DNA of 64,000 bases from Lentisphaerae bacterium RIFOXYA12_64_32 (GCA_001803235.1 MHBL01000459.1:4840-68839); one strand, 5' to 3'. Shown: positions 4,133 to 63,683, counted from the first letter of the stretch. Numbers and translations: made by a program. Notes: generated from the letters alone by a model not told the origin.

Positions 4133-4263
4133 GGGCGTGTCGATTTAGCCCACGCGGCCCCAAGTCAGCCCGCGAGGACGCGGGCGCTCCAGCTCGGATG
4201 CAGCACGAATTATGGAGCGCCCGCGTCCTCGCGGGCTCTGGATTCCATTAAATCGACACGCCC
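4133..4263. mobile_element. MITE-like element, TIR GGGCGTGTCGATTTA, enclosing a GGAG-REP inverted pair
   Basis: Perfect 15-bp TIRs at 4133-4147 and 4249-4263; direct repeat TGAAT at 4128-4132 and 4264-4268; internal perfect 24-bp inverted repeat at 4168-4191 and 4213-4236. Confidence 0.7.
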
Positions 4264-4365
4264 TGAATCGCGGGACTCAGGCGGAGACCTCGGGTAGACG
4301 GGGACGCGGGCACTCCAGGGGGGACATGGCGCACGCTGGGAGTGTGATGCTGGCGGCGGCGGAAT

Positions 4366-6627
4366 TCACGGGGAAATCCGCAACTCCACCGGTCCGGCTT
4401 GGGCGCAGACCGCGAGTTCCCCCCGTTCCGCATCGAACTGCCACTGTCCGGCCGCCAAGTCGGTCCCATTCACCCGGATCTGTTTCGGAGGCGCTTTCAG
4501 CGCGATCCGGAATGACCAGGTGCGGTTTGAGGCCTGGCCGGCGAACGTGCCGCGCGTCGCCCCGACGGCAATCCGCACCCCCGCCTTCTCCGCCATCGCG
4601 GTGACCCGGGTGACGGCAAACCGCCCCCGCGCGTGTTCCAGGGATGAGCCGTCGTCTTCGTAGAACTCGAACGCGCTCTCTCGGGCGCCCGGAAACACGT
4701 ACCATTCCACGTTGTCGACCGGGCGTTCGCCGCGGTAAGCCATCAAGGGCCCGAACGGGATGATGGCGCCTTCGCGCACGAACAGACCGCCCCCGCGGTT
4801 CTGCGGCCACGCGATGGTGTGGTCGCATCCCCCGTCGTACACGCGTCCGGTCCAGTAGTCCTTCCACGCGCCGGCGGGGAGGTACACCTCCGGTTTGTAG
4901 ATGGTGACGAGCAGGTCGCGTCCCAGCAGGTACTCGTGCAGGACGTCGCGGCAGCGGCGGTCGGCCTGGAACTCCAACGGCAGCGGGACCATGAGCGGAT
5001 AGCCGGTTTGGGTGGCGCGCCAGGCCCACGAGTAGATGTACGGGATCAGGCGCGCCCGGAGCTGGGCGTAGTCGCGGTGCATGTCGCAGAGCTCCTGGCC
5101 TTGTACCCACGGCATGCGGAAGTAGTTCCAACTGTTGATCTGGCTCCACGGCAGGAGATAGCCGAAATGGAGACCCTCCTTCTGGGCCACCTCCATGTCG
5201 TTGGTGGCCCAACTGTGGGCAACCATGGCCGTATTGAGCATGGCGCCGAGGGTTTCGAGGCGCCCGCCTGTGTCGCCGGTCCACGTTCCCGCCCAGGCCT
5301 GGAACCCGGCCCAGCCGGCAGGGGTGAACACGACGGGGCGCCGGCCCGTGTGTGCGGCGAAGCCTTCGTACATCTGGCGCGCGTACAGGAGCGGGTAGAG
5401 GTTGTGCATTTCGGCGTCCGGCATGCCGTTGCCCCAGCAGCGGTCCGGGTGGTCGAGGACTTGGTAGGCCCCGTCCTGCTTGAAGAAGTCCGCGCACTGA
5501 TCCGTGAATTTCTTCAGGTGCTCGAACCAAGCCTGGTCCCGCTTCGTGACGCGGTCGCTGTACATGGGGTGGCTGAAATGCGCGTCCTGTTCGGCTTCCT
5601 TGTGGAAGAATGCATCAACCCGGGGATCGCCCTTGCCGCAGTCCGGCTGTCCGACTCGGCGCTCCGCCTCAAAGGACAGATCGTAGTCGCAGCAGAGCCA
5701 CAGTTCCATGCGGTAACCCATGCGGCGGATGGCATTGAAGAAGTTGTGCGGGCCGGTGCGGCAGTACGAGGGGATCGGGAAGCGCTGCGCGCTCCAGTCC
5801 TTGTCCACGGAGCCGTCGTAGTTCTTCTCCATCCATCCCGGTTCCAGGCCGATGACGTCGCACGGGATGTTCTCGCGCCGGAAGTTGATCGCGTCGTTGA
5901 CGGCTTCGCAGTCGTTGGCCTGGGTGCGGCAGATGTACCAGAGGCCGAACGCCCAGTCCGGGGGTAGCTTGGGTCTGCCGGTCAGTTCTGTGTAGACGTC
6001 CAGCAGATCGCGAAACGAATCACCCAGCATCACGTAGTAATCCACGATGCCGCGGCCGTCGCGCCACTCGACATGGTTGGGGTCGGACGAGCACAGATCG
6101 AAGACTACGCGGTGTGTGGTATTGACCAGGATGCCGAGGCCGCGGGTGGACATGAAGAACGGGACCGGGATGTACGAGCGGACGTTGCGGACGTGACAGT
6201 CGGCCACGTGCCCCCGGTGGAAGAGCCGTTCCCGCGTCTGGTCGCCGAACCCGGTCCAGTCCTCGTCGGCCGTGGCCTTGAAGCGCACGGCGACGCCCGA
6301 CTCATGATACGTGACGGCGGTCTGCTGAGTTCGCACCGTCCCGCGTGCGTCCGCGACCGCGATGACGGTTCCGTCCGCCGACCAGGATACACGCATCTGG
6401 TCGCTGGCCGCGAAGGCCTTGCCGGCGGTCTTGCCGGTGCGCACCCGGACCCGGGCGCCGGCCGGCGGGGCGATGAAGCCGTAGCGGTTCAGGCCCGTGT
6501 CCGGGAAGTCCCCCGTGCGGCTGAGCTGGATGCGGGCGACCCGGGGCGAGAGGAAGGTGACGCGGAGGGCGGTGTCCGCCTTCAACTCTTGTTCGACGAC
6601 AGAGCGGGCCGGTTTCGTCTTGCTCAT
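4366..6627 (-). CDS. GH31 alpha-glycosidase (YicI/alpha-xylosidase-like)
   Basis: IPVPFFMSTRG, GRPKLPPDWAFGLW, nucleophile-region FFKQDG, acid/base WTGDT, LRARLIPYIYS, YLLGRDLLV, VYLPAGAWKDYWTG, FYEDDG. Confidence 0.85.
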   Translation of the reverse strand: MSKTKPARSVVEQELKADTALRVTFLSPRVARIQLSRTGDFPDTGLNRYGFIAPPAGARVRVRTGKTAGKAFAASDQMRVSWSADGTVIAVADARGTVRTQQTAVTYHESGVAVRFKATADEDWTGFGDQTRERLFHRGHVADCHVRNVRSYIPVPFFMSTRGLGILVNTTHRVVFDLCSSDPNHVEWRDGRGIVDYYVMLGDSFRDLLDVYTELTGRPKLPPDWAFGLWYICRTQANDCEAVNDAINFRRENIPCDVIGLEPGWMEKNYDGSVDKDWSAQRFPIPSYCRTGPHNFFNAIRRMGYRMELWLCCDYDLSFEAERRVGQPDCGKGDPRVDAFFHKEAEQDAHFSHPMYSDRVTKRDQAWFEHLKKFTDQCADFFKQDGAYQVLDHPDRCWGNGMPDAEMHNLYPLLYARQMYEGFAAHTGRRPVVFTPAGWAGFQAWAGTWTGDTGGRLETLGAMLNTAMVAHSWATNDMEVAQKEGLHFGYLLPWSQINSWNYFRMPWVQGQELCDMHRDYAQLRARLIPYIYSWAWRATQTGYPLMVPLPLEFQADRRCRDVLHEYLLGRDLLVTIYKPEVYLPAGAWKDYWTGRVYDGGCDHTIAWPQNRGGGLFVREGAIIPFGPLMAYRGERPVDNVEWYVFPGARESAFEFYEDDGSSLEHARGRFAVTRVTAMAEKAGVRIAVGATRGTFAGQASNRTWSFRIALKAPPKQIRVNGTDLAAGQWQFDAERGELAVCAQAGPVELRISP

Positions 6628-6908
6628 CGTGTGGCGTCCTTCAATCTGTTATTGTTGCCGGACCCATGGAAGGCCGCGCGTCCTGCACGTCGGACTTGTG
6701 TTGTGTCCGGTTTTCCCGTATATAGTGGCGCCGACGCGAATAGCAAGACCGGTGCGAAAAGCCCGGGCCGCGCAGACCGCGCTCCGCTGGTCGACGGCGG
6801 CAAGGTTGCGGGGTATATTGTCAGGGCTGTGGTAGAGGGGCAGCAGACCGCCGCGCCGCGCCGAGGCGGCGGCCGCAGCCGCCGTAACCAAGGGAGCCAG
6901 GGCGAACT

Positions 6909-9410: not shown

Positions 9411-9794
9411 CGACCTGTGCGGGAAGATCCTGAGAGAGAAAATGCCCCACCATGGACGCCAGGGCGCACCTGTTCGTAGTGGGCTCGCAGTGCGCGGAAC
9501 GAAGTGGAGCGCCAAGAGCCCATCTGGGGCATGGTTCAAGGGTTCACGGTTGGTCGAATCTGCGCTTACATCCGATAACCTGATAACCTTGAACCCCTGA
9601 ACCGTGAACCATGGACGCCAGGGCGTACCTGTTCGTAGTGGGCTCGCAGTGCGCGGAACGAAGTGGAGCGCCAAGAGCCCATCTGGCGTGTTGCGGCGGT
9701 GCGGTGTGGGGATGGTGTCTTGCCCGGCGGACAACCGCCGGGACTGCGACACCACTACGAACGATGCCGTGGCCGGATCTACCCGCACAGGTCG
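9411..9794 (+). mobile_element. MITE, CGACCTGTGC family, interior type A, with a nested GGCATGGTTCA element
   Basis: 20-bp TIRs CGACCTGTGCGGG(A/T)AGATCC at 9411-9430 and 9775-9794; perfect 8-bp TSD TTCTTTTC at 9403-9410 and 9795-9802; 78-bp internal direct repeat at 9450-9527 and 9609-9686. Confidence 0.85.
9528..9613. repeat. Heptamer-periodic inverted-repeat element (GGTTCA-based, type C)
   Basis: GGCATGGTTCAAGGGTTCACGGTT...AACCTTGAACCCCTGAACCGTGAACCATG; homologous to the outer parts of 12418-12705. Confidence 0.75.
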
Positions 9795-9805
9795 TTCTTT
9801 TCCCC

Positions 9806-11568: not shown

Positions 11569-11740
11569 CGACGTGTGCAATAAACGGAACACGGGCACGA
11601 CACCTTCTGACCGTACCGCGGGCGGCCCCCCGCCCGTGTCTCGGCACGTGGGCAGCACAAGGTTCGGGTGGCGGCCGGAGGGCCGCCCGCGGTACAGTAT
11701 CTCAGACGAGCCGATCTCGCTCCCCTTGTTGCGCAGGTCG
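11569..11740. mobile_element. MITE, CGACCTGTGC family (CAATAA subtype), with a GTACCGCGGGCGGCCC hairpin pair
   Basis: Ends CGACGTGTGCAATAA and TTGTTGCGCAGGTCG; TSD GAAGAATG/AAAGAATG (7/8); internal perfect 16-bp inverted repeat at 11613-11628 and 11680-11695. Confidence 0.7.
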
Positions 11741-12417: not shown

Positions 12418-12705
12418 GGCATGGTTCAAAGGTTCACCGTTCCGGGGTTCACGGTTGGTCGAATCCGTGCTTGCATTCGAAGTGACTACGCAGGTGGATG
12501 GGCTGAAGGGGCTTAGGCTGAAGGAAGAATCAGGCGGAGTCGTACGAAACTCGACGCGTTCTACCCGGATGACGGCTGCGGGTGGGTTCGATTCGGACCG
12601 TCAAGGCGCTCCACCTTCAGCCTAACAGCCTTCAGCCTGAGCAACCTGAGTAGTTACCATACCGATAGCCCCACAACCTTGAACCTCTGAACCGTGAACC
12701 CTGCC
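12418..12705. mobile_element. Type C heptamer element (TIR GGCANGGTTCA) containing a nested type D element
   Basis: TIRs GGCATGGTTCA and TGAACCCTGCC; TSD GAAGGAAA/GAAGGGAA (7/8) at 12410-12417 and 12706-12713. Confidence 0.7.
12482..12657. mobile_element. MITE, GTRACTACTCAG family, interior type D (GGCTGAA heptamers)
   Basis: Ends GTGACTACGCAGG and CCTGAGTAGTTAC; close reverse-complement homolog of 14430-14605; degenerate TSD CATTCGAA/CATACCGA. Confidence 0.75.
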
Positions 12706-12718: not shown

Positions 12719-14455
12719 ATGAATGTCCTGGGGCTCAGTTTCCACTGCTATGACACATCCGCGTGTCTGTTCCAAGACGAGCGGCTGGTTGCCTTTGCCG
12801 AAGAGGAACGCTTCACGCGCGTGAAGCATGCCGTGGACGTGTTCCCGGTGAATGCGCTGAAGTACTGCCTGAAGCAGGGCGGGCTTTCCCTCGAAGAAGT
12901 GGACGCCATCGCTTTTGGTTTTGACGTCGACAGGCACGACAGCGGTGACATGCGGAAATTCTATGACTCGATGCCCTACGACAAGGACGAAGGGACGAAG
13001 GCCTGGGAGCGCCACAATATCGGGCTGTTTTCGGCGGAGAACATGAAGGCGTACCTGCAGTTGAAGCTGCGGAAAGCCGGCCTGACGTGCGCGCTGCCGC
13101 CGTTGAAGTGCTACTCGCACCACCTGAGTCACGCTGCGAGTGCCTACTACTGCTCGGGGTTCCAGGAGGCCATTACCATCACCATGGATGGCAGTGGCGA
13201 CGACAATGCCGCGGTCCTGTGGAAGTGCGGTGGCGACAGGATCGAGGAAGTCAAGGCGATCAAGATTCCCCACTCTCTCGGCTGGCTCTATGCCGCAATC
13301 ACCGAATATCTGGGTTTCGACGCGAACAGCGGTGAGGGCAAAGTCATGGGCTTGGCGCCCTACGGGGCCGCCGTCCCCGAGGTCGAGGCGGCGTTCGACC
13401 AGTTGATACAGATCCGTCGGGGCGAGTACAGCATTGACCCGTACAGCATCTTCTACGGCAAGCACACCTACAACCCGCGCTTCACGGACAAGATGGCGGG
13501 GCTGCTGCCCATTCCGCCCAAGCACAGCAAGGCGGACTTGTTTGCGGGCTACCAGAACATCGCGTTCAGTCTGCAGGACCGGCTGGAGAAGGCCGTGATC
13601 GAGCTGACCCGCTTTCTGGTGGACAAGACGGGTATCCGGAATTTGTGCCTGGGAGGAGGGGTCGCCCTAAACTGCAAGGCGAACGGCAAGATCTGGGCTC
13701 AGTGCGAGTTGGACGGCATTTTCGTCCAGCCGATAAGTTCCGACGCGGGGACCTGCTTGGGGGCGTCGCTCCTGTGTCTGAAGGACCACGGCATTTCACC
13801 GCGCATCCCGTTCACCCATGCGTACCTGGGGCCTGAGTACAGCAACGAGGAGATCCAGCGGGCGCTGGACGCGAACAAGCTGACGTACCGGAAGCTCGAG
13901 AATGTCCCGCGGGCCGCCGCGGAACTGCTGCGCGACGACAAGATCATCGGCTGGTTCCAGGGGCGCATGGAAGCCGGCCCGCGCGCCCTAGGCGGGCGGA
14001 GCATACTGGCAAGTCCGCTCAAAGCCGACATGAAGGACCGGGTGAACGATCAGGTCAAGTTCCGGGACCCGTGGCGTCCTTTCTGTCCGTCCGTGTTGTA
14101 TGAGAAGGCGGGCGAGTATGTCGAACACATGTGCTTCCATCCGTTCATGATTCTGGCGTTCAAGGTCAGGCAGGAGAGAGTCAAGGATATTCCGGCCGTG
14201 GTACATGTGGATGGAACCGCAAGGCCGCAGATGGTGAGACGAGAGGACAACGAACGGTACTACGAGATGATCAAGTGCTTTGGAGAAATGACCGGTGTCC
14301 CGGTGGTGCTGAACACCTCGTTCAATGTGAAGGGCGAGCCCATCGTGTGCTCGCCGCTGGACGCGATCCGGTGTTTCTACGGCACGGGACTGGACGCGTT
14401 GGTGATGGGTGATTTCCTCTTGACGAAGGGTCACTACTCAGGTTGTTTAGGCTGA
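12719..14455 (+). CDS. Carbamoyltransferase (NodU/CmcH/TobZ family)
   Basis: AEEERFTRVKH, HHLSHAASAYY, DGSGD, GGVALNCKAN, GPRALGGRSILA, KFRDPWRPF, LNTSFN; the last 9 codons come from an inserted MITE. Confidence 0.92.
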   Translation: MNVLGLSFHCYDTSACLFQDERLVAFAEEERFTRVKHAVDVFPVNALKYCLKQGGLSLEEVDAIAFGFDVDRHDSGDMRKFYDSMPYDKDEGTKAWERHNIGLFSAENMKAYLQLKLRKAGLTCALPPLKCYSHHLSHAASAYYCSGFQEAITITMDGSGDDNAAVLWKCGGDRIEEVKAIKIPHSLGWLYAAITEYLGFDANSGEGKVMGLAPYGAAVPEVEAAFDQLIQIRRGEYSIDPYSIFYGKHTYNPRFTDKMAGLLPIPPKHSKADLFAGYQNIAFSLQDRLEKAVIELTRFLVDKTGIRNLCLGGGVALNCKANGKIWAQCELDGIFVQPISSDAGTCLGASLLCLKDHGISPRIPFTHAYLGPEYSNEEIQRALDANKLTYRKLENVPRAAAELLRDDKIIGWFQGRMEAGPRALGGRSILASPLKADMKDRVNDQVKFRDPWRPFCPSVLYEKAGEYVEHMCFHPFMILAFKVRQERVKDIPAVVHVDGTARPQMVRREDNERYYEMIKCFGEMTGVPVVLNTSFNVKGEPIVCSPLDAIRCFYGTGLDALVMGDFLLTKGHYSGCLG

Positions 14456-14605
14456 AGGCTGTTAGGCTGAAGGTGAAGAGCCTTGACGGTCCGAATCGAG
14501 CACACCCGCGGCCACCATCCGGCTTGAACGCATCGAGTTCCGTACGACTCCGCCTTGTTCTTCCTTCAGCCTAAGCCCCTTCAGCCTATCCACCTGAGTA
14601 GCTGT
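14430..14605. mobile_element. MITE, GTRACTACTCAG family, interior type D
   Basis: Ends GTCACTACTCAGG and CCTGAGTAGCTGT; perfect TSD GACGAAGG at 14422-14429 and 14606-14613. Confidence 0.85.
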
Positions 14606-27877: not shown

Positions 27878-29314
27878 ATGAAGACGCCGAAAGTCATGCT
27901 GGTTTGTCCGCCCAGGACCATTCTCAGGTCCAGCGTGAAGCGATGCTGCACTCCGATTGGCCTCGCGTATGTTGCGGCGGTCCTTGAGAAGAACGAAGTG
28001 GAAGTCCAAGTTCTGGACGCCTTTGCGGAAGGCTATGACACCGAAGAGGACGTGGGGGGTGGCTATGTGAAGGTCGGGCTGTCGGCCGTCGACATACAGC
28101 AACGTATTTCGGCCTTCTCGCCGGACTTTGTGGGCGTGACCTGCGCTTTCACCAGCGAGATAGGCAACGCCACCGACGTCTGCAGGTTGGTCAAGAAGCA
28201 GGATCCCCGGATTTCCGTGGTCCTCGGCGGATTGCATCCAACCAACTACCCTCTTGAAACGTTGGCAATGTGTCCGGAGATCGACTTTATCATCCTGGGG
28301 GAAGGCGAGTTCAGGATGCTGAAACTTGTGCGGGGCGAAAGGGATTTCGACGGCCTTGTCGACGGCAAGACTCACACGGTGAACCTGCCACGAACGCGTA
28401 TCGAGAATCTGGACGAGCTGCCGTTCCCCGCAAGGCACTTGCTGAAGATGGATCTCTACCTGAAGATCAACAAACACATCTCCCCATACCCCAGAAAGCA
28501 ACGTACGGAGCAAATTCTGACCAGTCGAGGGTGTCCCGGGCAGTGTGTGTTCTGCACCAGCAGCAGGTTCTGGGGCGCGAAGTTCAGGAAGCGCAGTCCT
28601 GAGAATGTGATCGAGGAGATGAAATACCTCATCAAAGAGTACGGAGTCGAGGAGTTTCAGTTTACGGACGACAGCATGACTCTGGATCGAGCGCGGGCGA
28701 TGCGGATATTCGAGATGATGGAACCGCTGGATGTGATCTTCTGCATGGCCAACGGGACCTTTGTCAACTCCCTGGACGAGGAGCTGATCCGGCACATGCG
28801 AAGGGCGGGGTGTTACCAGATCACCTTCTCCGTCGAGAGCGGGAGCAAAAGAAGTCTTGAGTTGATGAGAAAGCACGTGAACCTCGACCGGGTCAAGCCG
28901 CTGGTCCGATGCTCGCAGCGTTTAGGCATAAGCTGTCACGCCACCTTCGTCCTTGGCATCCCCGGTGAGGCGCCAGAGGACATCAGGGCATCCTTCAGGT
29001 TCGCGGCTAACTGCGATTTTGACTCGGCGTCCTTCTTTGTCGTCTCGCCGCTTCCCGGATCGGAACTCTACGATCTGTGTGTGCAGCAGAATTACCTCAC
29101 CGATACGTCGTTTGACAAGATGGACTTCAAGTCCGCGAAGATCAACAACCCGTCTCTGCCGCCGCTGCTTCTGGAGCGGTTGATCATCAACCAGAACACC
29201 CTTTTCATTGTGAAGTATCTTGTGAGGCACCCCGTTAAGTTTTTCAGAAAGTACGGGCTTTTCATGTTGAACAATCCGCGCGAGATCCCCAAGGTATTCG
29301 GGAGGGTCACCTGA
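27878..29314 (+). CDS. Cobalamin-binding radical SAM protein (class B methyltransferase-like) #1
   Basis: PIGLAYVAAVLE, GGLHPT, GEGE, LPFPARHL, TSRGCPGQCVFC, RSPENVIEE, FTDD, VESG. Confidence 0.9.
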   Translation: MKTPKVMLVCPPRTILRSSVKRCCTPIGLAYVAAVLEKNEVEVQVLDAFAEGYDTEEDVGGGYVKVGLSAVDIQQRISAFSPDFVGVTCAFTSEIGNATDVCRLVKKQDPRISVVLGGLHPTNYPLETLAMCPEIDFIILGEGEFRMLKLVRGERDFDGLVDGKTHTVNLPRTRIENLDELPFPARHLLKMDLYLKINKHISPYPRKQRTEQILTSRGCPGQCVFCTSSRFWGAKFRKRSPENVIEEMKYLIKEYGVEEFQFTDDSMTLDRARAMRIFEMMEPLDVIFCMANGTFVNSLDEELIRHMRRAGCYQITFSVESGSKRSLELMRKHVNLDRVKPLVRCSQRLGISCHATFVLGIPGEAPEDIRASFRFAANCDFDSASFFVVSPLPGSELYDLCVQQNYLTDTSFDKMDFKSAKINNPSLPPLLLERLIINQNTLFIVKYLVRHPVKFFRKYGLFMLNNPREIPKVFGRVT

Positions 29315-29320
29315 TTGACG

Positions 29321-32016: not shown

Positions 32017-32038
32017 AACTCAACCGCCTTCGCCACCG

Positions 32039-34081: not shown

Positions 34082-34090
34082 CTGACGACG

Positions 34091-35647: not shown

Positions 35648-35652
35648 CCCCG

Positions 35653-36579: not shown

Positions 36580-36670
36580 AGTGAGGTCGGGCCGGTCTGG
36601 ACAGGCTCTCCGGAAACGGGCTGTCAAGCGATGATCCAGTGAGTCGTGCGGGACCGCCCGTGGATATCAC

Positions 36671-38146
36671 ATGCGTATGAAAGTCCTCTTTGTCTACCCC
36701 GGCTACATTGTGCGGGAGGTGCCGCTTAACCTCCTCTACGTGAGTGCCTGTGCCCGGGCTCGCGGGCACGAGTGCCGGCTCTTCCACTTCAGCGAGTTCC
36801 GGGTCCCTGAATGGTTCCGGTCGACCGGCGACCGGATCGCCGAGCGATTCGGCACCATCCTCGACGAGTACCGCCCGGATGTGGTCGGCTTCAGCGTGAT
36901 GGTTCAGGACTATCAGGTCACGAAGCGCCTCACCTCCCTGGCCAAAAAGCGCGGCGCGACGGTGATCTGGGGCGGGATCGAGGCGATCCTCGAACCGTTG
37001 CGGTGTCTCTCCGAGCCGGACGTTGACTTCGTCTGCACCGGTGAGGGCGAGGCGGTGTTCCCCGAGTTCCTCGCCTTTCTCCAGAACGGCCGCACGGGTT
37101 CGCCGCCGCGGGGCATATGGTATCGGGACGAAGCCGGCAAACCGATCGACAACGGCCGGCCGGACCTGATTGCGGACTTGGATGCGCTGCCGTTTCCCGA
37201 TCGCGAGCTGCTGCCGGCCCGCTACTACCGTGCCGAATTGACCGGCGCGAACGTCATGACGGCGCGCGGGTGTCCGTTCCCCTGCACGTTCTGCCAGAAC
37301 CAACGACTCATGGACATCTTCCGTGGGCATGGAAGTTTTGTGCGCTATCGCAGCCTCGAGAGTGTACTGCAGGAGATGGAGTGGCTGGTCAAGACCTACG
37401 ATTCGCCCTGTTTCTACATGTCCGATGAAATTTTCACGCTCAACCGGGCCCGGGTCTTGGAGTTCTGCCGAGTGTATCCCTCCCGGATCGGCAGGCCTTT
37501 CCTGGTCCAGACGCGAGTCGACCGCATGGATGAAGAACTGGCCGAAGCGGTGAGCCGGGCGGGCTGCGTCCTGGTCAACTTGGCCATCGAGAGCGGGAAC
37601 GACGAGATCCGGTGTCAGGTGCTGGGGAAAGGCACGTCCCGGGAGCAGATCGAAAAGGCGTTTCGCGTCGTGCACGAGCATGGGATGATGTCGTCCAGCT
37701 TCAACATGATCGGAGTGCCCGGGGAGACCCTCGCGAGTATCTGGGACACCATTGAGGTGAACCGCAAGCTCAAACCCGACCGGATCCTGTGCTCGATCTT
37801 CATGCCTCTGCCCGGAACTGAACTGGGCGAATCCTGCCGCGCCAAAGGAATGACGCGGGGCAATGTCTACGAAACGACCAACTACTACTCCCAGGTCACT
37901 GTCGATCTGCCGGGAATCCGCCCCCGGACGCTCATCGGATACCAGGGGTTCTTTGATTGGTTTGTTCTACTTCCCAGATGGCTGCACCCGGCGGTCCACG
38001 CGCTGCGCATTCTCTATCAGCTGGCCGTGCCGCCGGACCTGCCGCGGCATACCCCGCTGCGGAAAGCCCGGGAAATCGTGGTGGAGTTCGTTTACCAGAG
38101 CAAGCGCTTTCTGCCCGGCAAACGCCTGAAGGTCAAGACACGCTGA
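36671..38146 (+). CDS. Cobalamin-binding radical SAM protein #3
   Basis: PLNLLYVSA, WGGIEA, GEGE, LPFPDREL, ARGCPFPCTFC, SDEIF, IESGN, NMIGVPGET. Confidence 0.9.
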   Translation: MRMKVLFVYPGYIVREVPLNLLYVSACARARGHECRLFHFSEFRVPEWFRSTGDRIAERFGTILDEYRPDVVGFSVMVQDYQVTKRLTSLAKKRGATVIWGGIEAILEPLRCLSEPDVDFVCTGEGEAVFPEFLAFLQNGRTGSPPRGIWYRDEAGKPIDNGRPDLIADLDALPFPDRELLPARYYRAELTGANVMTARGCPFPCTFCQNQRLMDIFRGHGSFVRYRSLESVLQEMEWLVKTYDSPCFYMSDEIFTLNRARVLEFCRVYPSRIGRPFLVQTRVDRMDEELAEAVSRAGCVLVNLAIESGNDEIRCQVLGKGTSREQIEKAFRVVHEHGMMSSSFNMIGVPGETLASIWDTIEVNRKLKPDRILCSIFMPLPGTELGESCRAKGMTRGNVYETTNYYSQVTVDLPGIRPRTLIGYQGFFDWFVLLPRWLHPAVHALRILYQLAVPPDLPRHTPLRKAREIVVEFVYQSKRFLPGKRLKVKTR

Positions 38147-38183
38147 AGATGGGACTCACGTGTTCGGTGTTCAGCGAAGGAAT

Positions 38184-38372
38184 CGACCTGTGCGGGTAAA
38201 TCCGACCGCGCGGAAGTACGGCCGCAGTGGCTCGGCGCGTCCCGCGCCGAAGCGGGGTGCGCCGGCCGGCCTGTCCGGCGAAGCTGCCTGGGCGAAGTCG
38301 GATCCCCGGCCGAGGGCCTCGGGCCGGGACGGCCCCGAGCACCCTGCTGCGGTCCCGGAGGTCCCGCGCCAC
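38184..38372 (+). repeat. Type B hairpin repeat with a single CGACCTGTGC end
   Basis: Begins CGACCTGTGCGGGTAAATCC; GTGGCTCGGCGCGTCCCGCGCCG...GGTCCCGGAGGTCCCGCGCCAC body also found at 43483-43618 and (reversed) 63494-63683. Confidence 0.8.
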
Positions 38373-38473
38373 GGCCTGCCACTGCGCACAACGTGCTCAG
38401 CCCGAACACCGAAACCCTGATTCCAGCACGCGCGGTGTGATCGCTGAGTAGTTCTGAAGATGAAAGACTGAAG

Positions 38474-39814
38474 ATGAAGGTCCTGCTGGTCAACTTACCG
38501 TTCTACCGGCTCATGGGCAGCCACTACAACGGGCTGAACCTGGGACTGTGCTACATTGCGGCCGTGCTGAATCAGAGAGGGCACGCCTGCCGGATCTACA
38601 ACGGCGATTACCTCGATTCCGAAGTGTACCCCGACCAAGTGCAGCTTTTCAACGGCATCGACTCCTACAAGGTTGCACACTCCAACTCAAATCACCCTAT
38701 CTGGCAGGAGACGGTCCAGGCGATCCTGGCCTCTGAGCCGGATTTCGTCGGGCTCTCGATCTTCACCGCGGATTTTCCCGCGGCCCGCATTGTCGCCAGC
38801 CTCCTGAAAGAGCGCCGGCCAGAGACCCGGGTGGTGGTCGGCGGGCCGCATGTTACCGTCAGTGGCGGCAAAGTCCTCGAGGAATGCCCCGCGATCGACT
38901 ACGCGGTCGTCGGCGAGGGCGAGTTCGCTATGCGCGACCTGGTCGACGGCGTCGCGCCCGAGACGGTGCCGGGGCTGGTCTGGCGCCGGGATGGAAAGGT
39001 GGTTTCCGGCTTGCCTGCGGCCCCGATCGAGGACCTTGACGCGCTGCCGTTTCCGGACCGGGCGCACTTCCACCCACCCGGGGCTCGCTACAATACGCAC
39101 TTTGTCCTCACCTCCCGGGGTTGCCCCAATTGCTGCACGTTCTGCGCCAGCCCGCGCATCTGGAACCACCGGGTTCACTTCCGCAGCATCGACAGCGTGG
39201 TGGCCGAACTCCAGGCGCTCAAGGATTCCGGCCAACGGTTTGTCCAGTTTCAGGACGATACCTTCACGTACCGCAAAGAGCGCCTGCTCGGATTGATGGA
39301 TGAGATGGTGAAACGGGAGCTCGGGCTGTCGTGGATCTGCGACACCCGCCTGACGTGCATCGACGCTGAGATCCTCGAAGCCATGAAGCGGGCCGGTTGT
39401 GCGCGGGTGAAGGTCGGGATCGAATCGGGAAGCCCCCGCATTCTCAAGGCGATCCGCAAGGGAATCACTCCTGAGCTTGCCCTGGAGAAGACGGCGCTGA
39501 TCAAGAGCGTCGGCCTGGGCCTGGGCGTTTATTTCATGATCGGGTTCCCCGGCGAGACGAATGAGGACGCGCGCCAGACCATCGAACTCGCCAAGCGCAT
39601 CGGCGCCGATTATTACAGTCTCTCCATCGTGGCGCCCTACCTCGGGACCGAGATCTACAACGACCACGTTGCGTCGGGCGCCGTCTCCGAGAAGAACCAC
39701 TGGGAGTACTTCTTCCACCAGAGCAAAGAGTTGATTCTCACCTCCGGGATTGACCCCGCCATCGTCGATGAGTTCCTCGCTCTCAATCAATACGGCAAAG
39801 GAAAGCGAATATGA
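38474..39814 (+). CDS. Cobalamin-binding radical SAM protein #4
   Basis: NLGLCYIAAVL, GGPHVT, GEGE, SRGCPNCCTFC, DDTF, GIESG, FMIGFPGET. Confidence 0.9.
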   Translation: MKVLLVNLPFYRLMGSHYNGLNLGLCYIAAVLNQRGHACRIYNGDYLDSEVYPDQVQLFNGIDSYKVAHSNSNHPIWQETVQAILASEPDFVGLSIFTADFPAARIVASLLKERRPETRVVVGGPHVTVSGGKVLEECPAIDYAVVGEGEFAMRDLVDGVAPETVPGLVWRRDGKVVSGLPAAPIEDLDALPFPDRAHFHPPGARYNTHFVLTSRGCPNCCTFCASPRIWNHRVHFRSIDSVVAELQALKDSGQRFVQFQDDTFTYRKERLLGLMDEMVKRELGLSWICDTRLTCIDAEILEAMKRAGCARVKVGIESGSPRILKAIRKGITPELALEKTALIKSVGLGLGVYFMIGFPGETNEDARQTIELAKRIGADYYSLSIVAPYLGTEIYNDHVASGAVSEKNHWEYFFHQSKELILTSGIDPAIVDEFLALNQYGKGKRI

Positions 39815-40965: not shown

Positions 40966-41927
40966 GCGGCCGCAAATTCCTGGTTACCGGCGGAGCCGGT
41001 TTCATCGGCTCCCACTTGGTCGACACCTTGCTCCGCGAAGGTGCCGGAGAGGTCGTCGTCTTCGACAATCTTGTCCGTGGGACCCAGGCTAACCTGGACA
41101 GCGCGCGCCATGATCCGCGGCTCAAGGTCTTCCCTGTCGAACGGGCCGATCTCATGGATCGAACGGCCGTTGCGGAGGCCGTGCAGGGCGTTCACGGCGT
41201 CTTCCACATGGCCTCACATTGTCTGGGGGCCTGCCAGGAGAACCCACGGGCCGGATTTGACGCCAATGTCGTTGGGACCTACAACCTGCTCGAGGCCTGC
41301 GTCGCGAACGATCGCCCGCGCGTGCTCTTCTCGTCCAGTTCGTCGGTCTACGGCAATGCCCGCTATGTGCCGATGGATGAGCAGCACCCGTTCAACAATC
41401 GCAACTTCTACGGCGCCGGCAAGATCTGCGGCGAGGCCCTGTGCCGTGTCTTCCACGCCGAATACGGCCTTCCCTATGTGGCGCTGCGCTACATGAATGT
41501 CTATGGACCACGGCAGGACTACCGCGGCACCTACGTGGCGGTGATCATGCGCATCATCGATCGGCTGCACCAGGGCCTGCCCCCCATCGTCAATGGCGAC
41601 GGCTCGCAGCGTTTCGACTTTGTCTATGTCGAAGACGTATGCCGCGCCAATCTCCTGGCCATGGAGAAGGACGCGACCGTGGACGAGGCCATCAATATCA
41701 GTTCCGGCAGCAGCACCTCCGTACTGGAACTCTGTCGCCGGATCATGGCGCTTATGCAGCGGGAACTGCCCGTCGAATTTGTGCCCCAGAAAACCGACGT
41801 CCTGGTCACCCATCGGGTCGGCAGCACGGAGAAGGCCGCGACCCTCCTGGGGTTCACGGCGTCGACCCCCCTGGACGAGGGACTGCGCCAGACGATCCGT
41901 TGGAAGCTGAACCGTCGCGATGGGTGA
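40956..41927 (+). CDS. NAD-dependent epimerase/dehydratase (extended SDR)
   Basis: LVTGGAGFIGSHL, SSSSVYG, YGAGK, RYMNVYGPRQ, DFVYVED. Confidence 0.92.
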   Translation: MELSGRKFLVTGGAGFIGSHLVDTLLREGAGEVVVFDNLVRGTQANLDSARHDPRLKVFPVERADLMDRTAVAEAVQGVHGVFHMASHCLGACQENPRAGFDANVVGTYNLLEACVANDRPRVLFSSSSSVYGNARYVPMDEQHPFNNRNFYGAGKICGEALCRVFHAEYGLPYVALRYMNVYGPRQDYRGTYVAVIMRIIDRLHQGLPPIVNGDGSQRFDFVYVEDVCRANLLAMEKDATVDEAINISSGSSTSVLELCRRIMALMQRELPVEFVPQKTDVLVTHRVGSTEKAATLLGFTASTPLDEGLRQTIRWKLNRRDG

Positions 41928-42260
41928 CGGTTGAGGTTGCCTAGGCTGAAGGTGGAGAACGCTGGCGGTCCGGGTCGGGCGATACCAAGGCCGTCACCCA
42001 GCTCGCAGTGCACCGAATGCACCCGTGCCCGGCCTGATCTTCTTCCTTCGTGACTACTCAGGTAGACAGGAGTCAGAATGGGGACGCCAGTAGCGACAGT
42101 CGTGGACTCAGAAGACGCTGTTGCTGCCGATTTGCCGCCGCTAATCAAGGCGTTCCGCACGTTGCTGGACGCTGTTGCACTTTCCATTCTGAATTCTGAC
42201 TCCTGGCTTCTGACTACCTGAGTGGTTACCTTCCCTCAGCCTATCCACCTGAAGAATTCC
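41924..42260. mobile_element. Decayed type D MITE (GTRACTACTCAG family) containing nested element E
   Basis: Ends GTGACGGTTGAGG and CCTGAAGAATTCC; CCTAGGCTGAAGGT and CAGCCTATCCACCTGA match 14430-14605; TSD CGCGATGG/CGCGATTG (7/8). Confidence 0.65.
42050..42229. mobile_element. MITE, GTRACTACTCAG family, interior type E (TTCTGAC/TCCTGRC heptamers)
   Basis: 16-bp TIRs GTGACTACTCAGGTAG and CTACCTGAGTGGTTAC; TSD CTTCCTTC/CTTCCCTC (7/8). Confidence 0.8.
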
Positions 42261-42275
42261 CGCGATTGAATCGAG

Positions 42276-43481: not shown

Positions 43482-43482
43482 G

Positions 43483-43618
43483 GACCTGTGACGAAAGCGG
43501 TGGCTCGGCGCGTCCCGCGCCGAAGTGGGGTGCGTCCGCCGCGGCCGGTCCCCGGCCGAGGGCCTCGGGCCGGGACGGCCTCGAGCACCCTGCTGCGGTC
43601 CCGGAGGTCCCGCGCCAC
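43483..43618 (+). repeat. Type B hairpin repeat (shortened copy)
   Basis: GACCTGTG remnant, then GTGGCTCGGCGCGTCCCGCGCCG...GAGGTCCCGCGCCAC. Confidence 0.75.
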
Positions 43619-43667
43619 TGCCCGAAGTAGCCCCGTCCGTAACCGTATAGATAGGGACCGAACCGCT

Positions 43668-45527: not shown

Positions 45528-45766
45528 GTAACTACTCAGGTACCCCGATTGGGAGACCCCTGTGGCCTTGTGCCACAGGTGAATCAGGTTCACTGGCTAC
45601 AACGCCGGCGCTTCTCCCCTCCCGTATCCCGCCCGCCGCCGGCGGGCGGGATACGGGAGAGTGGGGGTGGCTTCGGGCTAGCTGGCGAACCTGATTCACC
45701 TGCCACGCAAGGTGGCAGGGGTCTCCAAGACGAGACGGCGGATTCCGCGCCTAGCTGAGTAGTTAC
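45528..45766. mobile_element. MITE, GTAACTACTCAG family, interior type F (arm-hairpin-arm)
   Basis: TIRs GTAACTACTCAG and CTGAGTAGTTAC; perfect TSD TCTGACTT at 45520-45527 and 45767-45774; about 40-bp inverted arms at 45552-45591 and 45687-45726; perfect 19-bp central stem at 45619-45659. Confidence 0.88.
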
Positions 45767-52003: not shown

Positions 52004-53335
52004 TTGCGAATCCTTCAAGTCAACACCGCCGACTCGGGCGGGGGCGCCGAGGGGTCGGCCATGCGGCTGGTCGAGGAGTACCGGCGGCGTGGCCACGATT
52101 CCTGGCTGGCGGTCGGGCGCAAGTATGGCGTCGATCCCGACGTCCTTGAGATTCCGGTCGCCCCGGCGCCGGGCGCAGCGGGGCGACTGCTCCAGGGGCT
52201 GGCCACGGGCTTACGCCGGCGGTTTTCGGGCAACAGTGTGGTGCGGGCCCTGGAACGACGGTCGCTGCAGATCGCCGACCCCGAACGCCGCCGCGCCTGG
52301 TGGCGCGGCCACGAGGTCTTTCACTTCCCGGGCTCGCGACAACTGCTGCAGTTGTCGCCGCGCGTGCCGGACATCGTGCATTGCCACAACCTGCACGGTT
52401 GGTATTTCGACCTGACCTTCCTGCCGGAACTGAGCCGGCAAGTGCCCGTGGTCCTGAATCTGCGCGACGCCTGGCTGCTCACCGGGCACTGCGCGCACTT
52501 TTTCAACTGTGAACGCTGGAAGCACGGCTGCGGCCAGTGTCCGGACCTCCAGACCTATCCCGCGATCCGACGCGACGCTACGGCCGCGAACTGGCAGCGC
52601 AAGGCCGAGATCTATGCCGCCAGCCGGCTTTACGTCACCACCATCTCGCAGTGGCTCGCGGACTGTGTGCGCGAGTCCATGCTCAAGCCCATGGAGTGTC
52701 GCGTCATCCCCAACGGCATCGACCTGGATGTGTTCCGGCCCGGCGACAAGGTGCAAGCCCGACAGGCGTTGGACTTGCCTCTGGACCGGCGAATCGTGCT
52801 CTTCGCAGGGACAGGCCTGCGCCAGAACCCCTTCAAGGACTATTCGACCGCGCGGCGCGCCATGGCGCTGGCTGCCGCACGGGCCAGCGCGGCGGACGGG
52901 GGGCTGCTGTTCCTCTGTCTCGGTTCGCACGGTCAAACCGAGGTGGACGGCCCGCTGACCGTACGGCATGTGCCGTTCGTGCGGAGTCCGCAACGGATGG
53001 CGGAGTACTACCGCGCCGCCGACGTCTACCTCCATGCGGCCAGAGCCGAGGCGTTCGGCAAGGCGGTCACCGAGGCCATGGCGTGCGGGACCCCGGTGGT
53101 CGCCTCCCGCGTCGGCGGCATTCCCGAACAGGTGGTGGACGGCCAGACCGGGTTCCTGGTCCCCGTCGGCGACGGCGACGCCATGGCAGAGCGGCTCACC
53201 GGATTGCTGGCCGACCCTGGCCTGCGGGCAGAGGCGGGGTGGCGCGCGGCGCAGCGCGGCGCGACGTTCTCGCTGACACGCCAAGTCGACAGCTTCCTTG
53301 CCTGGTACGAGGAGATCATCGACCTGTGCGGGTAA
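52004..53335 (+). CDS. GT4 glycosyltransferase (WcaC-like)
   Basis: [68 protein letters not shown]; the stop codon is supplied by a MITE TIR. Confidence 0.9.
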
Positions 53336-53581
53336 ATCCTGAGAGAGAAGAGGCCCCACCGTGGACGCCAGGATGCGCCTGTTCGTAGTGGGCTCGCAGT
53401 GCGCGGAACGAAGTGGAGCGCCAAGAGCCCATCCGGCGCGTTGCGGCGGTCTGGCGCGGGGATGGTGTCTTGCCCGGCGGACAACCGCCGGGACTGCGAC
53501 ACCACTACGAGCGGCGCCGCGACCGATGCCTGTTCGCACGAGGGCGTCATCCCGCGCGGCTGGATCTACCCGTACAGGTCG
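53320..53581 (+). mobile_element. MITE, CGACCTGTGC family, interior type A
   Basis: TIRs at 53320-53339 and 53562-53581; TSD GAGATCAT/GGGATTAT (6/8, both transitions); interior homologous to 9411-9794. Confidence 0.85.
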
Positions 53582-56197: not shown

Positions 56198-56421
56198 CGA
56201 CCAGTGCAATACCCCGACCCCACCGGCCTTGTGCCGGTGGTGAAGGAGGTTGGTTTGGCTAAGCGGACCGTCCCCCGCCCGGATTTTCCTCTTCTCCGGT
56301 CGGACCGCGGCCGCTGTCCGACCGGAGAAGAGGGGGGCCACGGATCGACCAGCCGTTGGACCTGCTTCACCACCGGCGCAAGGCCGGTGGGGTCGCCAAG
56401 CCGTCCCTATTGCACAGGTCG
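56198..56421. mobile_element. MITE, CGACCTGTGC family (CAATA subtype), with an F-like arm-hairpin-arm interior
   Basis: Ends CGACCAGTGCAATA and TATTGCACAGGTCG; TSD CAAGTAAG/AAAATAAG (6/8); 30-bp inverted arms at 56216-56245 and 56365-56394; 18-bp central stem at 56288-56333. Confidence 0.75.
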
Positions 56422-57574: not shown

Positions 57575-57654
57575 CCAGAGCCCGCGAGGACGCGGGCGCT
57601 CCAGGAGTTGGCACGGGGCCTGACTTGGAGCGCCCGCGTTCTCGCGGGCTCTGG
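57575..57654. repeat. GGAG-REP inverted doublet (REPIN-like)
   Basis: 29-bp arms CCAGAGCCCGCGAGGACGCGGGCGCTCCA and its reverse complement (1 mismatch); same unit as 4168-4236. Confidence 0.8.
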
Positions 57655-57715
57655 AAGCGACGTTGTCAGTTTCACCTTGGCATGACCGGGCGGGATCCCG
57701 CCCGGGGGGACTCTG

Positions 57716-62419: not shown

Positions 62420-62690
62420 CGACCCGTGCGGGTGAATCTGGTCACGGCACCGTTCGTAGTGGTGTCGCAGTCCCGGTCCCGCCTGACAGGCGGGATCCGC
62501 CGGGCAAGACACCATCTCGACACCACGCGGCCGCAACACGCCCGGCTTCGGTCAGAAACTTCTCCGCGACACGCCAGATGGGCTCTTGGCGCTCCACTTC
62601 GTTCCGCGCACTGCGAGCCCACTACGAACAGGCGCATCCTGGCGTCCATGGCGGGGCTTCTTCTCTCTCAAGATTTACCCGCACAGGTCG
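62420..62690 (-). mobile_element. MITE, CGACCTGTGC family, interior type A (reverse orientation)
   Basis: TIRs at 62420-62439 and 62671-62690; perfect TSD GACAATGA at 62412-62419 and 62691-62698. Confidence 0.88.
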
Positions 62691-62705
62691 GACAATGATA
62701 AGACG

Positions 62706-63455
62706 ATGAGTCCGAACTACGGCGTCATCACCATCTGCCTGAACGCGGCCGGCACGCTGCGCCGCTGCCTGGACTCGGTCCTGAGCCAGACAGCGCCGCC
62801 GGCGCAGTACGTGCTCGTCGACGGTGGTTCGACGGACGGGTCGCTTGAGATCCTGCGGGAGGCCGTAACGGCAGCGCCGTCGCGTTGGCCTTCGACCGAG
62901 GTGCGCCTGCTGCAGCAAACGGCCGGCGGCGGGATTCCGGCGGCGTGGAACCTGGGCCTGCGCGAACTCCGCACCGATGTGGTCTTCATCTTGAACAGCG
63001 ACGACTGGTACGCGCCCGACACCGGAGCCGTCGTGCTCGAATTCTTCACCGCCCACCCGGACGCGGACCTGCTGGCGACCGGGGTCCGTTTCTGTACCGG
63101 TCCGGATGACCCCGGAGCGGTGATAGCGTACCCGAAATCGTTCCGTCTGTTTCCGTTTCTCATGCCGGTGATGCATCCCGGCTGTTTCGTGCGCCGCTCC
63201 GTCTACGAGCGGCTGGGCCTGTTTGACGAGTCGCTCAGCATCTCGGCGGACTACGATTTTGTCTATCGCTGTTTCAGAAGCGGCATGAGGATCGCGACAC
63301 TCGGGAAATCGTTCACCAGCATGCAGATCGGTGGCCGGGCCGGCCGCAGTCGGCCAACGGCGCGGCGCGAGACCCTGCAGGTGGGCCTGCGCCACTCGCG
63401 GTTTGCCTTACTGCCCTGGATGGCATACGGTCTGAGGGTCATCCTGGGCCGGTAA
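62706..63455 (+). CDS. GT2 glycosyltransferase (WfgS/WcaE-like)
   Basis: VITICLN, VDGGSTDGS, AWNLG, LNSDDW, HPGCFVRR, ADYDF. Confidence 0.9.
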   Translation: MSPNYGVITICLNAAGTLRRCLDSVLSQTAPPAQYVLVDGGSTDGSLEILREAVTAAPSRWPSTEVRLLQQTAGGGIPAAWNLGLRELRTDVVFILNSDDWYAPDTGAVVLEFFTAHPDADLLATGVRFCTGPDDPGAVIAYPKSFRLFPFLMPVMHPGCFVRRSVYERLGLFDESLSISADYDFVYRCFRSGMRIATLGKSFTSMQIGGRAGRSRPTARRETLQVGLRHSRFALLPWMAYGLRVILGR

Positions 63456-63494
63456 CCGTCCGTCCGCTCCGCGATCGTCAGCAACGACGGACGG
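63456..63494 (+). terminator. Possible hairpin after the GT2 gene
   Basis: CCGTCCGTC at 63456-63464 pairs with GACGGACGG at 63486-63494; no U-tract. Confidence 0.25.
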
Positions 63495-63683
63495 TGGCGC
63501 GGGACCTCCGGGACCGCAGTGGGGTACCTCGGTTCGTCCCGAACCGAGACCCTCGGCCGGGGATCCGTCTTCGCCCAGGCAGCTTCGCCGGACAAGCCCG
63601 GCCGACGCACCCTGCTTCGGCGCGGGACGCGCCGAGCCACTGCGGCCGTACCTATGCGAGGCTGGATTTAGCCGCGCAGGTTG
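63494..63683 (-). repeat. Type B hairpin repeat with a single CGACCTGTGC-like end (reverse orientation)
   Basis: Reverse complement of 38184-38372; ends GGATTTAGCCGCGCAGGTTG. Confidence 0.8.

Follow-up and report, generated by a model that had tools for sequence, protein, structure and literature searches.

Small non-coding elements with interchangeable hairpin-pair cores are present in the window, the whole 64,000-nucleotide stretch of DNA analysed here. This stretch is probably a sample of a genome-wide population comprising several independent TIR/TSD MITEs, each defined by its termini, duplication length and choice of target. The shell-and-core elements are unusually modular, yet they are a form of known mobile DNA. 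The genome itself is a 10.6 Mb PVC-group groundwater MAG in 503 contigs with 4.8% estimated contamination, and the same sequences are present in independent groundwater runs. No Rfam family matched anywhere within the window.

An earlier note on this DNA had described four TIR types with TSDs. These are real MITE-type elements, with motifs far above chance, peaks in TSD length and no duplication in mismatched shell-end pairs (0/149). We refer to the shells as S1 (CGACCTGTGC, CGACC), S2 (GTAACTACTCAG), S3 (GTAATGCGTCAG), S4 (GGCATGGTTCA) and S5 (GGGCGTGTCGATTTA, GGGCG). By comparison with shuffles, the window contains six exact copies of CGACCTGTGC (0.25 expected), four of GTRACTACTCAG (0 expected), four of GGCANGGTTCA (0.15 expected) and two of GGGCGTGTCGATTTA (0 expected), and the ends at 11569, 56198, 62420, 12482 and 14430 are found once one or two mismatches are allowed. 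Genome-wide, the frequency of exactly identical flanks has its sole peak at k=8 for S1 (25/216 pairs), S3 (53/188) and S2 (7/18). S1 has an 8-bp TSD at AT-rich targets, and S2 and S3 (GTAA....TCAG) have an 8-bp TSD without target bias, as is IS66-like; TSD composition is 71% AT for S1 and 35% AT for S3, in a genome of 35% AT. For S4, exact identity at k=8 was seen in 2/23 pairs, its 8-bp duplication resting on 10/25 pairs with at least 6/8 matches. The 5-bp TSD originally assigned to GGGCG is instead one of 4 bp, since S5 flanks are identical in 39/84 pairs at k=4 and in 12/84 at k=5. TSD-like matches also exceed chance, with 88/278 CGACC pairs reaching at least 6/8 genome-wide and a shifted-flank control giving 0. 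A de novo scan requiring an exact 8-bp TSD and TIRs of at least 10/12 recovered the same shells, including minimal 51-56-bp S3 palindromes. The CGACC elements split into subfamilies that are alike far beyond 10 bp (GGGTAAATC.., AATAAG.. and AAGCAGCGGATCGAG..), and each S2 subfamily has its own subterminal short repeats. GTAACATGGGAG and GTTTCATGGGAG were tried as alternative termini and rejected: because a TSD was seen in 0/91 pairs with a GTAATGCGTCAG end, and because a conserved CGCGA precedes both motifs, they are internal junctions.

Among the individual TSDs proposed for the window, those at 9411, 62420, 14430 and 45528 are complete (8/8) and most others match at 6/8-7/8, with the exceptions of 12482 (5/8) and 41924 (eroded). 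The S1a shell encloses an A core at 9411..9794 (+ strand; CGACCTGTGCGGG..; TSD TTCTTTTC, 8/8), at 53320..53581 (+ strand; 262 bp; TSD 6/8) and, reversed, at 62420..62690 (- strand; TSD GACAATGA, 8/8). About 40-50 full genome copies exist of the S1a-A type represented at 53320, and nested in the element at 9411 is an S4 element (9528-9613), with 78 bp of the A arm duplicated around it. The S1b shell surrounds a Y core (GTACCGCGGGCGG doublet) at 11569..11740 (+ strand; CGACGTGTGCAATAAAC..; TSD GAAGAATG/AAAGAATG, 7/8) and an F2 core at 56198..56421 (+ strand; CGACCAGTGCAATA..; 224 bp; TSD 6/8). A further CGACC end, beyond those listed in the earlier note, is a left S1a TIR followed by an R2b/R2 RAYT-type REPIN core at 38184..38400 (+ strand); the right TIR and ~70 nt on the right are missing from this truncated composite, whose interior matches the intact composite at C490:12755 with 96% identity over 172 nt.

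D/E cores are found in S2 elements at 14430..14605 (+ strand; GTCACTACTCAG.., with TAGGCTGAAGG subterminal repeats; TSD GACGAAGG, 8/8) and at 12482-12657, where the element, its TSD decayed to just 5/8, interrupts an S4 element at 12418..12705 (+ strand; GGCATGGTTCA TIRs, GGTTCA subterminal repeats; TSD 7/8). Uninterrupted S4 copies of 103-107 bp elsewhere in the genome act as the empty sites for this insertion. At 41926..42262 (+ strand), a badly eroded S2/D-type element hosts a younger S2 element at 42050-42229 (TSD CTTCCTTC/CTTCCCTC, 7/8), and at 45528..45766 (+ strand; TSD TCTGACTT, 8/8) the GTAACTACTCAG shell carries an F core. A second TSD-bounded copy of that S2-F composite is present at C27:21057 (TSD CACGCATC), and at C279:22625 its right half and right TIR alone remain. 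The S5 element at 4133..4263 (no strand assigned; 131 bp, GGGCGTGTCGATTTA TIRs) has an H hairpin-doublet core and sits within a REP-like hairpin loop, between the flanks CCGCC-TGAA(T) and TGAA(T)-CGCGG, the family duplication being 4 bp. Shell-less units occur too: an R2b+R2 REPIN-type unit at 43482..43625 (+ strand) resembles the RAYT gene flanks at C337, with 84-92% identity to both, and an H hairpin doublet at 57575..57660 (no strand assigned) is without paired shell ends, its right flank being like the S3-alpha subterminal region. The elements are located inside long contigs with unique genes on either side. Repeats also sit at gene borders within a large biosynthetic locus, with possible effects on expression there.

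The earlier statement that one shell encloses unrelated interiors holds for both CGACC and GTAATGCGTCAG. Genome-wide, the 88 TSD-verified S1 shells contain Y (25), A (28), R2 (12), F2 (8), R3 (1) or other cores (13), and the S3 shells (n=79) contain K (at least 32), F (11-13), H (4) or none (21), the coreless forms being the minimal 51-56-bp ones. Tabulating shells against interiors revealed that interiors are not all confined to a single shell: K is found in S3, S5 and S8, F in S2 and S3, and H in S3 and S5, where each S5 element, with either H or K, is exactly 131 bp. The proposal that interiors are swappable was thus borne out for K, F and H, and not for A, Y, F2 and D/E, the main cores in the window, which are each limited to one shell type and could be native cores of separate MITE subfamilies. 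The 107-bp S1c and 51-56-bp S3 'empty shells' could be deletion products rather than precursors. Composites are repeated, with differing TSDs, at dozens of loci and so have spread as units. S1a-A and S1a-R2 have ~70 nt of left subterminal sequence in common and different centres, and compensatory stem changes between the F and F2 arms can be read from sequence. As had been suggested, the interiors are inverted hairpin doublets, and they fold back strongly into long hairpins (z = -5 to -14).

The same genome has hairpin-doublet repeats of several families at high copy number, and at least two of these families derive from the flanks of Y1/HUH transposase genes. The genome has 12 Y1_Tnp matches, one of which is a RAYT. 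The protein encoded at C337:30237-30881 scores 84.3 bits on the NCBIfam REP-associated tyrosine transposase model NF047646 (cut-off 80), and its gene has R2/R2b on both sides; R2 is part of a bona fide RAYT/REPIN system. Both R2 and H are plentiful without a shell. R2 mostly occurs in that form, yet it makes up the core of 12 TSD-verified CGACC elements, and the flank of the C337 RAYT gene matches S1a-R2 interiors at 90% identity over 114 nt. The two flanks of the C172 IS200-like gene, with the ORF missing, make up the S1b-R3 MITE (identity of 98% across 55 nt and of 84% across 92 nt). About 80 copies of this composite are present in G018, from another family of the order, where a clean TSD was seen in 1/6 S1b copies inspected. 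Judged by these sequence matches, the REPIN link is demonstrated for the R2 and R3 cores only. The earlier description of the cargo as REPIN-like therefore stands for R2 and R3, which lie next to a RAYT and an IS200-like gene, respectively, and is overstated for A, K, H and Y, where it has shape alone as its basis: no Y1 gene in the genome has any of these cores on both sides. Near Y1 genes, a single F-type arm was seen, at C362 only. The GTAG head is present in R1 (CGTAGT..), in the A arms (GTTCGTAGTGG) and in many R2 copies, and is absent from K, H, Y and F. R1, the true GTAG REP of this genome, is never cargo in shells, but is the target of the GGGCG element.

S5 pairs lie in REP hairpin loops (TTCA/TGAA) in 35/78 cases, compared with 5/20,000 in the control, and the 4-bp duplication falls within the loop. 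Two separate positions within S4 copies have received an S2 insertion, in both cases with an 8-bp duplication, and eight S4 copies are intact. Filled and empty sites are seen as paralogous pairs only, namely S2 in S4 copies and S5 in REPs, with other S4 copies and REPs intact. The genome is the sole representative of its family among those compared, and the stretch is shared by no relative there. Logan contig-level read data, in which contigs break at repeats, contained no excision or empty-site joints. The fragmentation of the MAG is explained by these same repeats, at which its contigs break.

We also evaluated candidate transposase partners. IS66-family DDE genes are present in the genome (PF03050, 7 hits), and the resident IS66-family ends are of the GTAA..TCA type (GTAACTTCTCAA, GTAAGAGTTCAG, GTAACCGTTCA and GTAAGCGTTCAG). 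A GTAA start combined with an 8-bp TSD is the IS66-family signature in the ISfinder family description, and the association drawn earlier is upheld in that such ends co-occur here with IS66-family transposases. The best TIR matches to a resident IS66 element are 10/12 for S2 (the IS on C410) and 8/12 for S3; the GTAA-type ends thus appear to fit the resident transposases at family level only. To our knowledge, no IS family matches the S1 ends. The search for full IS copies with the same ends was unsuccessful: autonomous IS with ends identical to S2 or S3 were not found, nor was an autonomous DDE element with CGACC, GGCATGG or GGGCG ends, in a fragmented assembly that leaves absence unproven. 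Matching ends 0.7-8 kb apart, with a TSD or extended TIR similarity, included no pair enclosing a transposase, and TIRs around every ISL3 and DDE_Tnp_1 locus and the C127 IS66 locus included no S1/S4/S5 ends. Scans of ORFs beside unpaired CGACC ends and on small contigs, both too noisy, gave no S1/S4/S5 IS. An IS256-type transposase is absent from the genome.

These data allow us to propose a mechanism. A cut-and-paste enzyme acting in trans would need just the terminal 10-20 bp of its substrate. Because only these bases matter, any foldback DNA between two matching termini would be moved and co-amplified, giving rise to shells with different cores. The mobilising enzymes would be DDE transposases, of the IS66 family for the GTAA ends. 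Cores may enter by nested insertion, by palindromic repeats recombining and undergoing internal deletion between them, or by both; nested insertion is a plausible route since hairpin loops are demonstrably a preferred target here, and a palindromic core may be favoured for drawing the two termini close to each other. The earlier notion that DDE-mobilised ends capture and spread cargo agrees, as to spread, with composites at many loci with different TSDs; capture we infer, as nested insertion, internal deletion and recombination are indistinguishable here. More tentatively, it is possible that two mechanistically different transposition systems are coupled in this lineage, with DDE-type termini repeatedly taking up hairpin doublets of Y1/HUH origin, hairpin loops serving as entry points for new shell-core combinations, and REPIN-like DNA, which is normally inherited vertically with a single-copy RAYT, gaining cut-and-paste transposition as a second means of multiplying and of spreading horizontally. 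The S1b-R3 composite, found in two families of the order, would be an example of such coupling.

It is unlikely that no exchange occurred and that every pairing of shell and core arose independently by deletion from an IS of its own, related transposases accounting for the shared terminal bases and subterminal IS DNA for the interiors. The similarity of the CGACC subfamilies well past 10 bp, the subterminal repeats peculiar to each S2 subfamily and the restriction of A, Y, F2 and D/E to one shell type each would fit such an origin. However, the boundaries of K, F and H are precise and identical across shells that differ in TIR, TSD length (8 versus 4 bp) and target, Y1-gene flanks that mostly occur without a shell are identical to the R2 and R3 cores, the left side common to S1a-A and S1a-R2 encloses different centres, and a parent IS was found for no combination. 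We consider it improbable that the hairpin doublets were instead primary, mobilised by Y1/HUH enzymes and actively inserting into MITE foldbacks as single-stranded hairpin targets, with passive shells amplified later in a systematic two-layer system. The insertion of S5 in REP loops, the Y1_Tnp complement including a RAYT, the plentiful shell-free R2 and H, the sharp core boundaries in every context and the compensatory changes between F and F2 arms all favour this order of events, but A, K, H and Y flank no Y1 gene, a lone F-type arm beside one such gene is all that was seen, and a conserved tetranucleotide target beside the cores is not established. Each composite family also has one fixed core position, which argues for one or few origin events rather than recurrent insertion.

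That MAG binning or chimeric assembly created the composites, or that the TIR/TSD matches are fortuitous, is highly improbable. The contig number, the estimated contamination and the breakage of contigs at repeats lend this some weight, but the elements lie between unique genes inside long contigs, identical composites occupy dozens of loci with distinct TSDs, independent groundwater runs contain the same sequences, and chance is excluded by the TSD-length peak and the mismatched-pair control.

Bacterial MITEs derived from DDE IS, such as Correia/NEMIS, RUP and Nezha, are likewise short, non-coding, intergenic foldback elements with TIRs, a fixed-length TSD and many copies. Here, in contrast, many unrelated cores occur per set of termini, the same core occurs under different termini, and no full-length partner with identical ends was found. 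Mobile insertion cassettes (MICs), such as MIC231 of Bacillus cereus, and other carriers of passenger DNA bounded by TIRs lack a transposase, have IS-type termini around variable passengers and are mobilised in trans. The present elements similarly enclose variable passenger DNA between IS-type termini with no transposase, but their passengers are non-coding hairpin repeats or Y1-element remnants rather than genes, and they are much smaller and far more numerous. The term mobile insertion cassette is in use (PMC6199540). REP/REPIN-RAYT systems also consist of GC-rich inverted hairpin doublets in hundreds of copies (Nunvar 2010, PMC2817692; Bertels & Rainey 2011, PMC3116915; Di Nocera 2013, PMC3733652), and here too R2 flanks a protein passing the RAYT model and R1 forms classic doublets with a GTAG head. 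Unlike in those systems, some doublets here lie in TIR/TSD shells and are duplicated with footprints of 8 bp, whereas movement of the RAYT type leaves no such trace, and Y1 genes are not associated with most of the cores found in shells (A, K, H and Y). Enterobacterial BIMEs (bacterial interspersed mosaic elements) are likewise mosaics of REP hairpins and other conserved motifs, but are without TIRs or TSDs and are not thought to be mobile as DDE-type units. Insertion sequences that target REPs include IS1397/ISKpn1, IS621 and IS1594 (reviewed in PMC3184786). Like IS1397 in PU loops, S5 inserts specifically in the REP hairpin loop with a 4-bp duplication; it differs in being 131 bp long and non-autonomous, with GGGCG... 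termini for which end-pair searches found no matching transposase.

The prevailing view of REPINs is that they are long-lived, inherited vertically and partnered with a single RAYT, and of MITEs that they are short-lived parasites of DDE transposases. The multiplication of RAYT-type or Y1-flank hairpins in TIR/TSD shells would show that these two worlds exchange parts and that MITE termini can transport foldback DNA generally. The shell-by-core matrix is a natural experiment bearing on the minimal sequence needed by the transposase and on why MITE interiors are often palindromic.

As read from the sequence, the elements in the window carry the inverted termini (TIRs) and flanking direct repeats (TSDs) that the earlier note had claimed for them. 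Their four end motifs are over-represented, with 6, 4, 4 and 2 exact matches against shuffle expectations of 0.25, 0, 0.15 and 0, and the other listed ends were found once one or two mismatches were allowed. TSDs match at 8/8 positions for the elements at 9411-9794 (TTCTTTTC), 14430-14605 (GACGAAGG), 45528-45766 (TCTGACTT) and 62420-62690 (GACAATGA), at 7/8 for 11569-11740, 12418-12705 and 42050-42229, at 6/8 for 53320-53581 and 56198-56421, and at 5/8 for 12482-12657; the TSD of 41926-42262 is eroded and that of 4133-4263 reads TGAA(T). One further CGACC end, at 38184, had been missed. At 28281-39144 the window also holds several diverged paralogous segments with common motifs (..GGCGAGGGCGA.. 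and CPF.C-type cysteine motifs), whose sequence suggests that related radical-SAM-like genes follow one another here; MITEs lie at a number of the gene boundaries in this locus.

To place these elements in context, we evaluated end pairs across the source genome (10.64 Mb, 65% GC, 503 contigs). Flanks matching at 6/8 or more positions were found for 88/278 CGACCTGTGC pairs, 14/21 GTAACTACTCAG pairs and 10/25 GGCATGGTTCA pairs; the shifted-flank control for the first gave 0, and unlike end pairs showed a duplication in 0/149 cases. These controls contradict the possibility that TSD-like matches are no better than chance. Duplication length was evaluated as exact identity of k bases either side of an end pair, with k varied. 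Identity peaks only at k=8 for the CGACC shell S1 (25/216) and for the GTAA-type shells S2 (GTAACTACTCAG; 7/18) and S3 (GTAATGCGTCAG; 53/188), in agreement with the 8-bp TSD proposed for the S1 and S2 ends. For S4 (GGCATGGTTCA) exact identity is limited to 2/23 pairs at k=8 and a single one at k=3; the main support for an 8-bp duplication in this family therefore comes from the near-matches. The GGGCG shell, S5, peaks at k=4 (39/84), and its family duplication is therefore 4 bp rather than the 5 bp first assigned to it. A motif-free scan (exact 8-bp repeat, TIR of at least 10/12) found the same shells again, the commonest genome-wide being GTAATGCGTCAG, at 51 to 447 bp. Duplications are 71% A+T for S1 and 35% for S3, in a genome of 35% A+T, which indicates that the shells differ in target choice; they probably differ in enzyme.

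Scoring 15 probes for the interiors, or cores, and 10 end motifs across the genome showed that a single shell type encloses unrelated interiors, as had been proposed. Among 88 TSD-verified S1 elements the core was Y in 25, A in 28, R2 in 12, F2 in 8, R3 in 1 and none of the probes in 13; S1 itself comprises subfamilies that have extended termini (GGGTAAATC.., AATAAG.. and AAGCAGCGGATCGAG..) and differ in their centres. The 79 verified S3 elements hold K (at least 32), F (11-13), H (4) or no probe (21, including 51-56-bp perfect palindromes), and the 14 verified S2 elements hold their own short-repeat cores or F. S5 (14 verified by the 4-bp test; 66 end pairs listed) holds H or K, both at exactly 131 bp. 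Since K occurs in S3, S5 and S8 shells, F in S2 and S3, and H in S3 and S5, interiors are not each tied to one fixed shell genome-wide; most window interiors are, and A, Y, F2 and D/E are each limited to a single shell type. The majority of F copies lie in GTAATGCGTCAG shells and not in the GTAACTACTCAG shell first described. Read from the sequence, F arms are homologous to F2 arms, and their stems show compensatory changes.

The description of the interiors as REPIN-like holds in part. The genome has 12 Y1_Tnp matches, one of which (C337:30237-30881) passes the NCBIfam REP-associated tyrosine transposase model (84.3 bits, cut-off 80) and has the R2/R2b repeat at both sides. Of the roughly 300 copies of this repeat, two thirds lie more than 300 bp from any shell end; the window unit at 43482-43625 carries no shell. 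The repeat and the C337 gene together form an ordinary RAYT/REPIN system. Twelve S1a elements with good TSDs have R2b+R2 as their centre, with 90% identity to the RAYT flank over 114 nt. The 38184 copy belongs to this class, sharing 96% identity over 172 nt with an intact one on C490; ~70 nt and the TIR have been lost on its right side. The interior of a 269-bp S1b element (C55:66272) consists of both flanks of an IS200-like gene on C172 with the ORF absent (downstream 98% over 55 nt; upstream 84% over 92 nt). In a genome from another family of the same order, this S1b-R3 composite recurs as a CGACCTGTGCAATAAG-ended 262-bp repeat (for example L102:3204-3465 and L103:136-397). That genome has 165 S1b ends, equivalent to about 80 elements provided that almost all are part of this repeat, as in 6/6 inspected pairs; a clean 8-bp TSD was seen in only 1/6, and the right flank GTAAATAT is common to two. 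Y1 genes in both genomes bear R3 hairpins, yet no CGACC ends. None of the source genome's Y1 genes is flanked by A, K, H or Y cores, for which the REPIN label reflects shape only, and its classic GTAG REP, R1 (CGTAGTYCCGCSTTYASGCGGTCCGG; about 245 doublet-forming sites), is never cargo. Elsewhere among the Y1 genes, a tandem CGACACC heptamer array (C172:10140-10330) follows immediately after the R3 hairpin downstream of the IS200-like gene. Two proteins of 264-294 aa (C214:1263-2144 and C362:151-942) match the Y1_Tnp model, the former in two distinct regions, its Y1 domain being duplicated; each gene is bordered by its own CTTG/CAAG-loop hairpins, and a single F-type arm lies ~150 nt downstream of that on C362.

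S5 stands in a different relation to REPs. Its 4-bp duplication (TTCA/TGAA or TTTA/TAAA) lies between complementary 5-nt stems in 35/78 pairs, compared with 5/20,000 control positions, and a GTAG head adjoins the stem in 22 of those 35. These non-random flanks indicate that S5 targets the loops of R1-type REP hairpins, in the manner of IS1397-type elements in enterobacterial REPs (PMC3184786).

Members of each composite class are scattered over many loci and flanked by differing duplications (the 79 S3 elements have 79 distinct TSDs, the 88 S1 elements 81), and so the composites move as units. Paralogous comparison provides empty sites: two S4 copies hold S2 at different positions, with 8 bp of S4 duplicated each time, next to eight copies without insertion, and intact R1 hairpins exist alongside S5-interrupted ones. 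Contig-level metagenome data gave only raised depth over elements and contig breaks. An S4 element nested in an A core (9528-9613; window 9450-9688) lies between two direct copies of a 78-bp stretch of the A arm (9450-9527 and 9611-9688) instead of an 8-bp duplication; this could reflect a widely staggered cut or synthesis during repair. A further abundant end motif, CCAGGGCTGTTT (266+259 ends, for example C106:18622 and C56:29089), forms 183 close pairs with an 8-bp TSD in only 4; this element probably duplicates another length, or nothing.

We looked for the enzymes among the genome's transposases. Seven IS66-family DDE matches were found, with copy ends GTAACTTCTCAA, GTAAGAGTTCAG, GTAACCGTTCA and GTAAGCGTTCAG. 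These have a GTAA....TCA(G) skeleton in common with S2 and S3, consistent at family level with the suggested IS66 link, although identity is 10/12 at best. Full IS copies carrying the same ends were not seen for S1, S4 or S5, whose ends enclosed no transposase in this assembly, which breaks at these repeats; partners may therefore be unassembled. IS256-type genes are absent from the genome, and the ends of the single ISL3 copy and of the IS4/5-type copies differ from those of the shells. A DDE_Tnp_1 gene at C151:24300-26700 lies between long 7-bp repeat arrays (TGATCAG/TTATCAG), its inverted termini. Many contigs start within a GTAATGCGTCAGCGCCCCCG end, at a depth of about 40 nt (for example C185:40-59, C267:39-58, C277:40-59, C295:40-59 and C346:40-59), marking this repeat family as a main cause of assembly fragmentation.

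The component parts of the system are of known kinds: MITEs (with IS66-like ends in the case of S2 and S3), RAYT/REPIN systems (PMC3116915, PMC2817692, PMC3733652) and REP-targeting insertion (PMC3184786). The mosaic itself resembles BIMEs, which are mosaic repeat arrays, and the shells resemble MICs, which are TIR-bounded passenger carriers. A limited literature search found no precedent for REPIN or Y1-flank DNA packaged and amplified within TIR/TSD shells, or for one hairpin core under termini with different duplication lengths. The host is an uncultured groundwater bacterium of the PVC group, whose Lon protease has 71-73% identity to Kiritimatiellota and Lentisphaerota MAG homologues.

All elements fold back with their termini paired (z = -5 to -14). 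The best-supported model is one where transposases recognise termini only, and matching termini carry any foldback DNA between them. Cores may have entered shells by nested insertion, given that hairpin loops are a demonstrated target in this genome, by recombination, or through deletions joining short repeats within palindromes. Longer elements could give rise to the 107-bp S1c and 51-56-bp S3 forms if the DNA between CAGT or CCGGCCGG repeats were deleted. The position of the core is fixed within each composite family, which indicates few origin events for each, followed by amplification.
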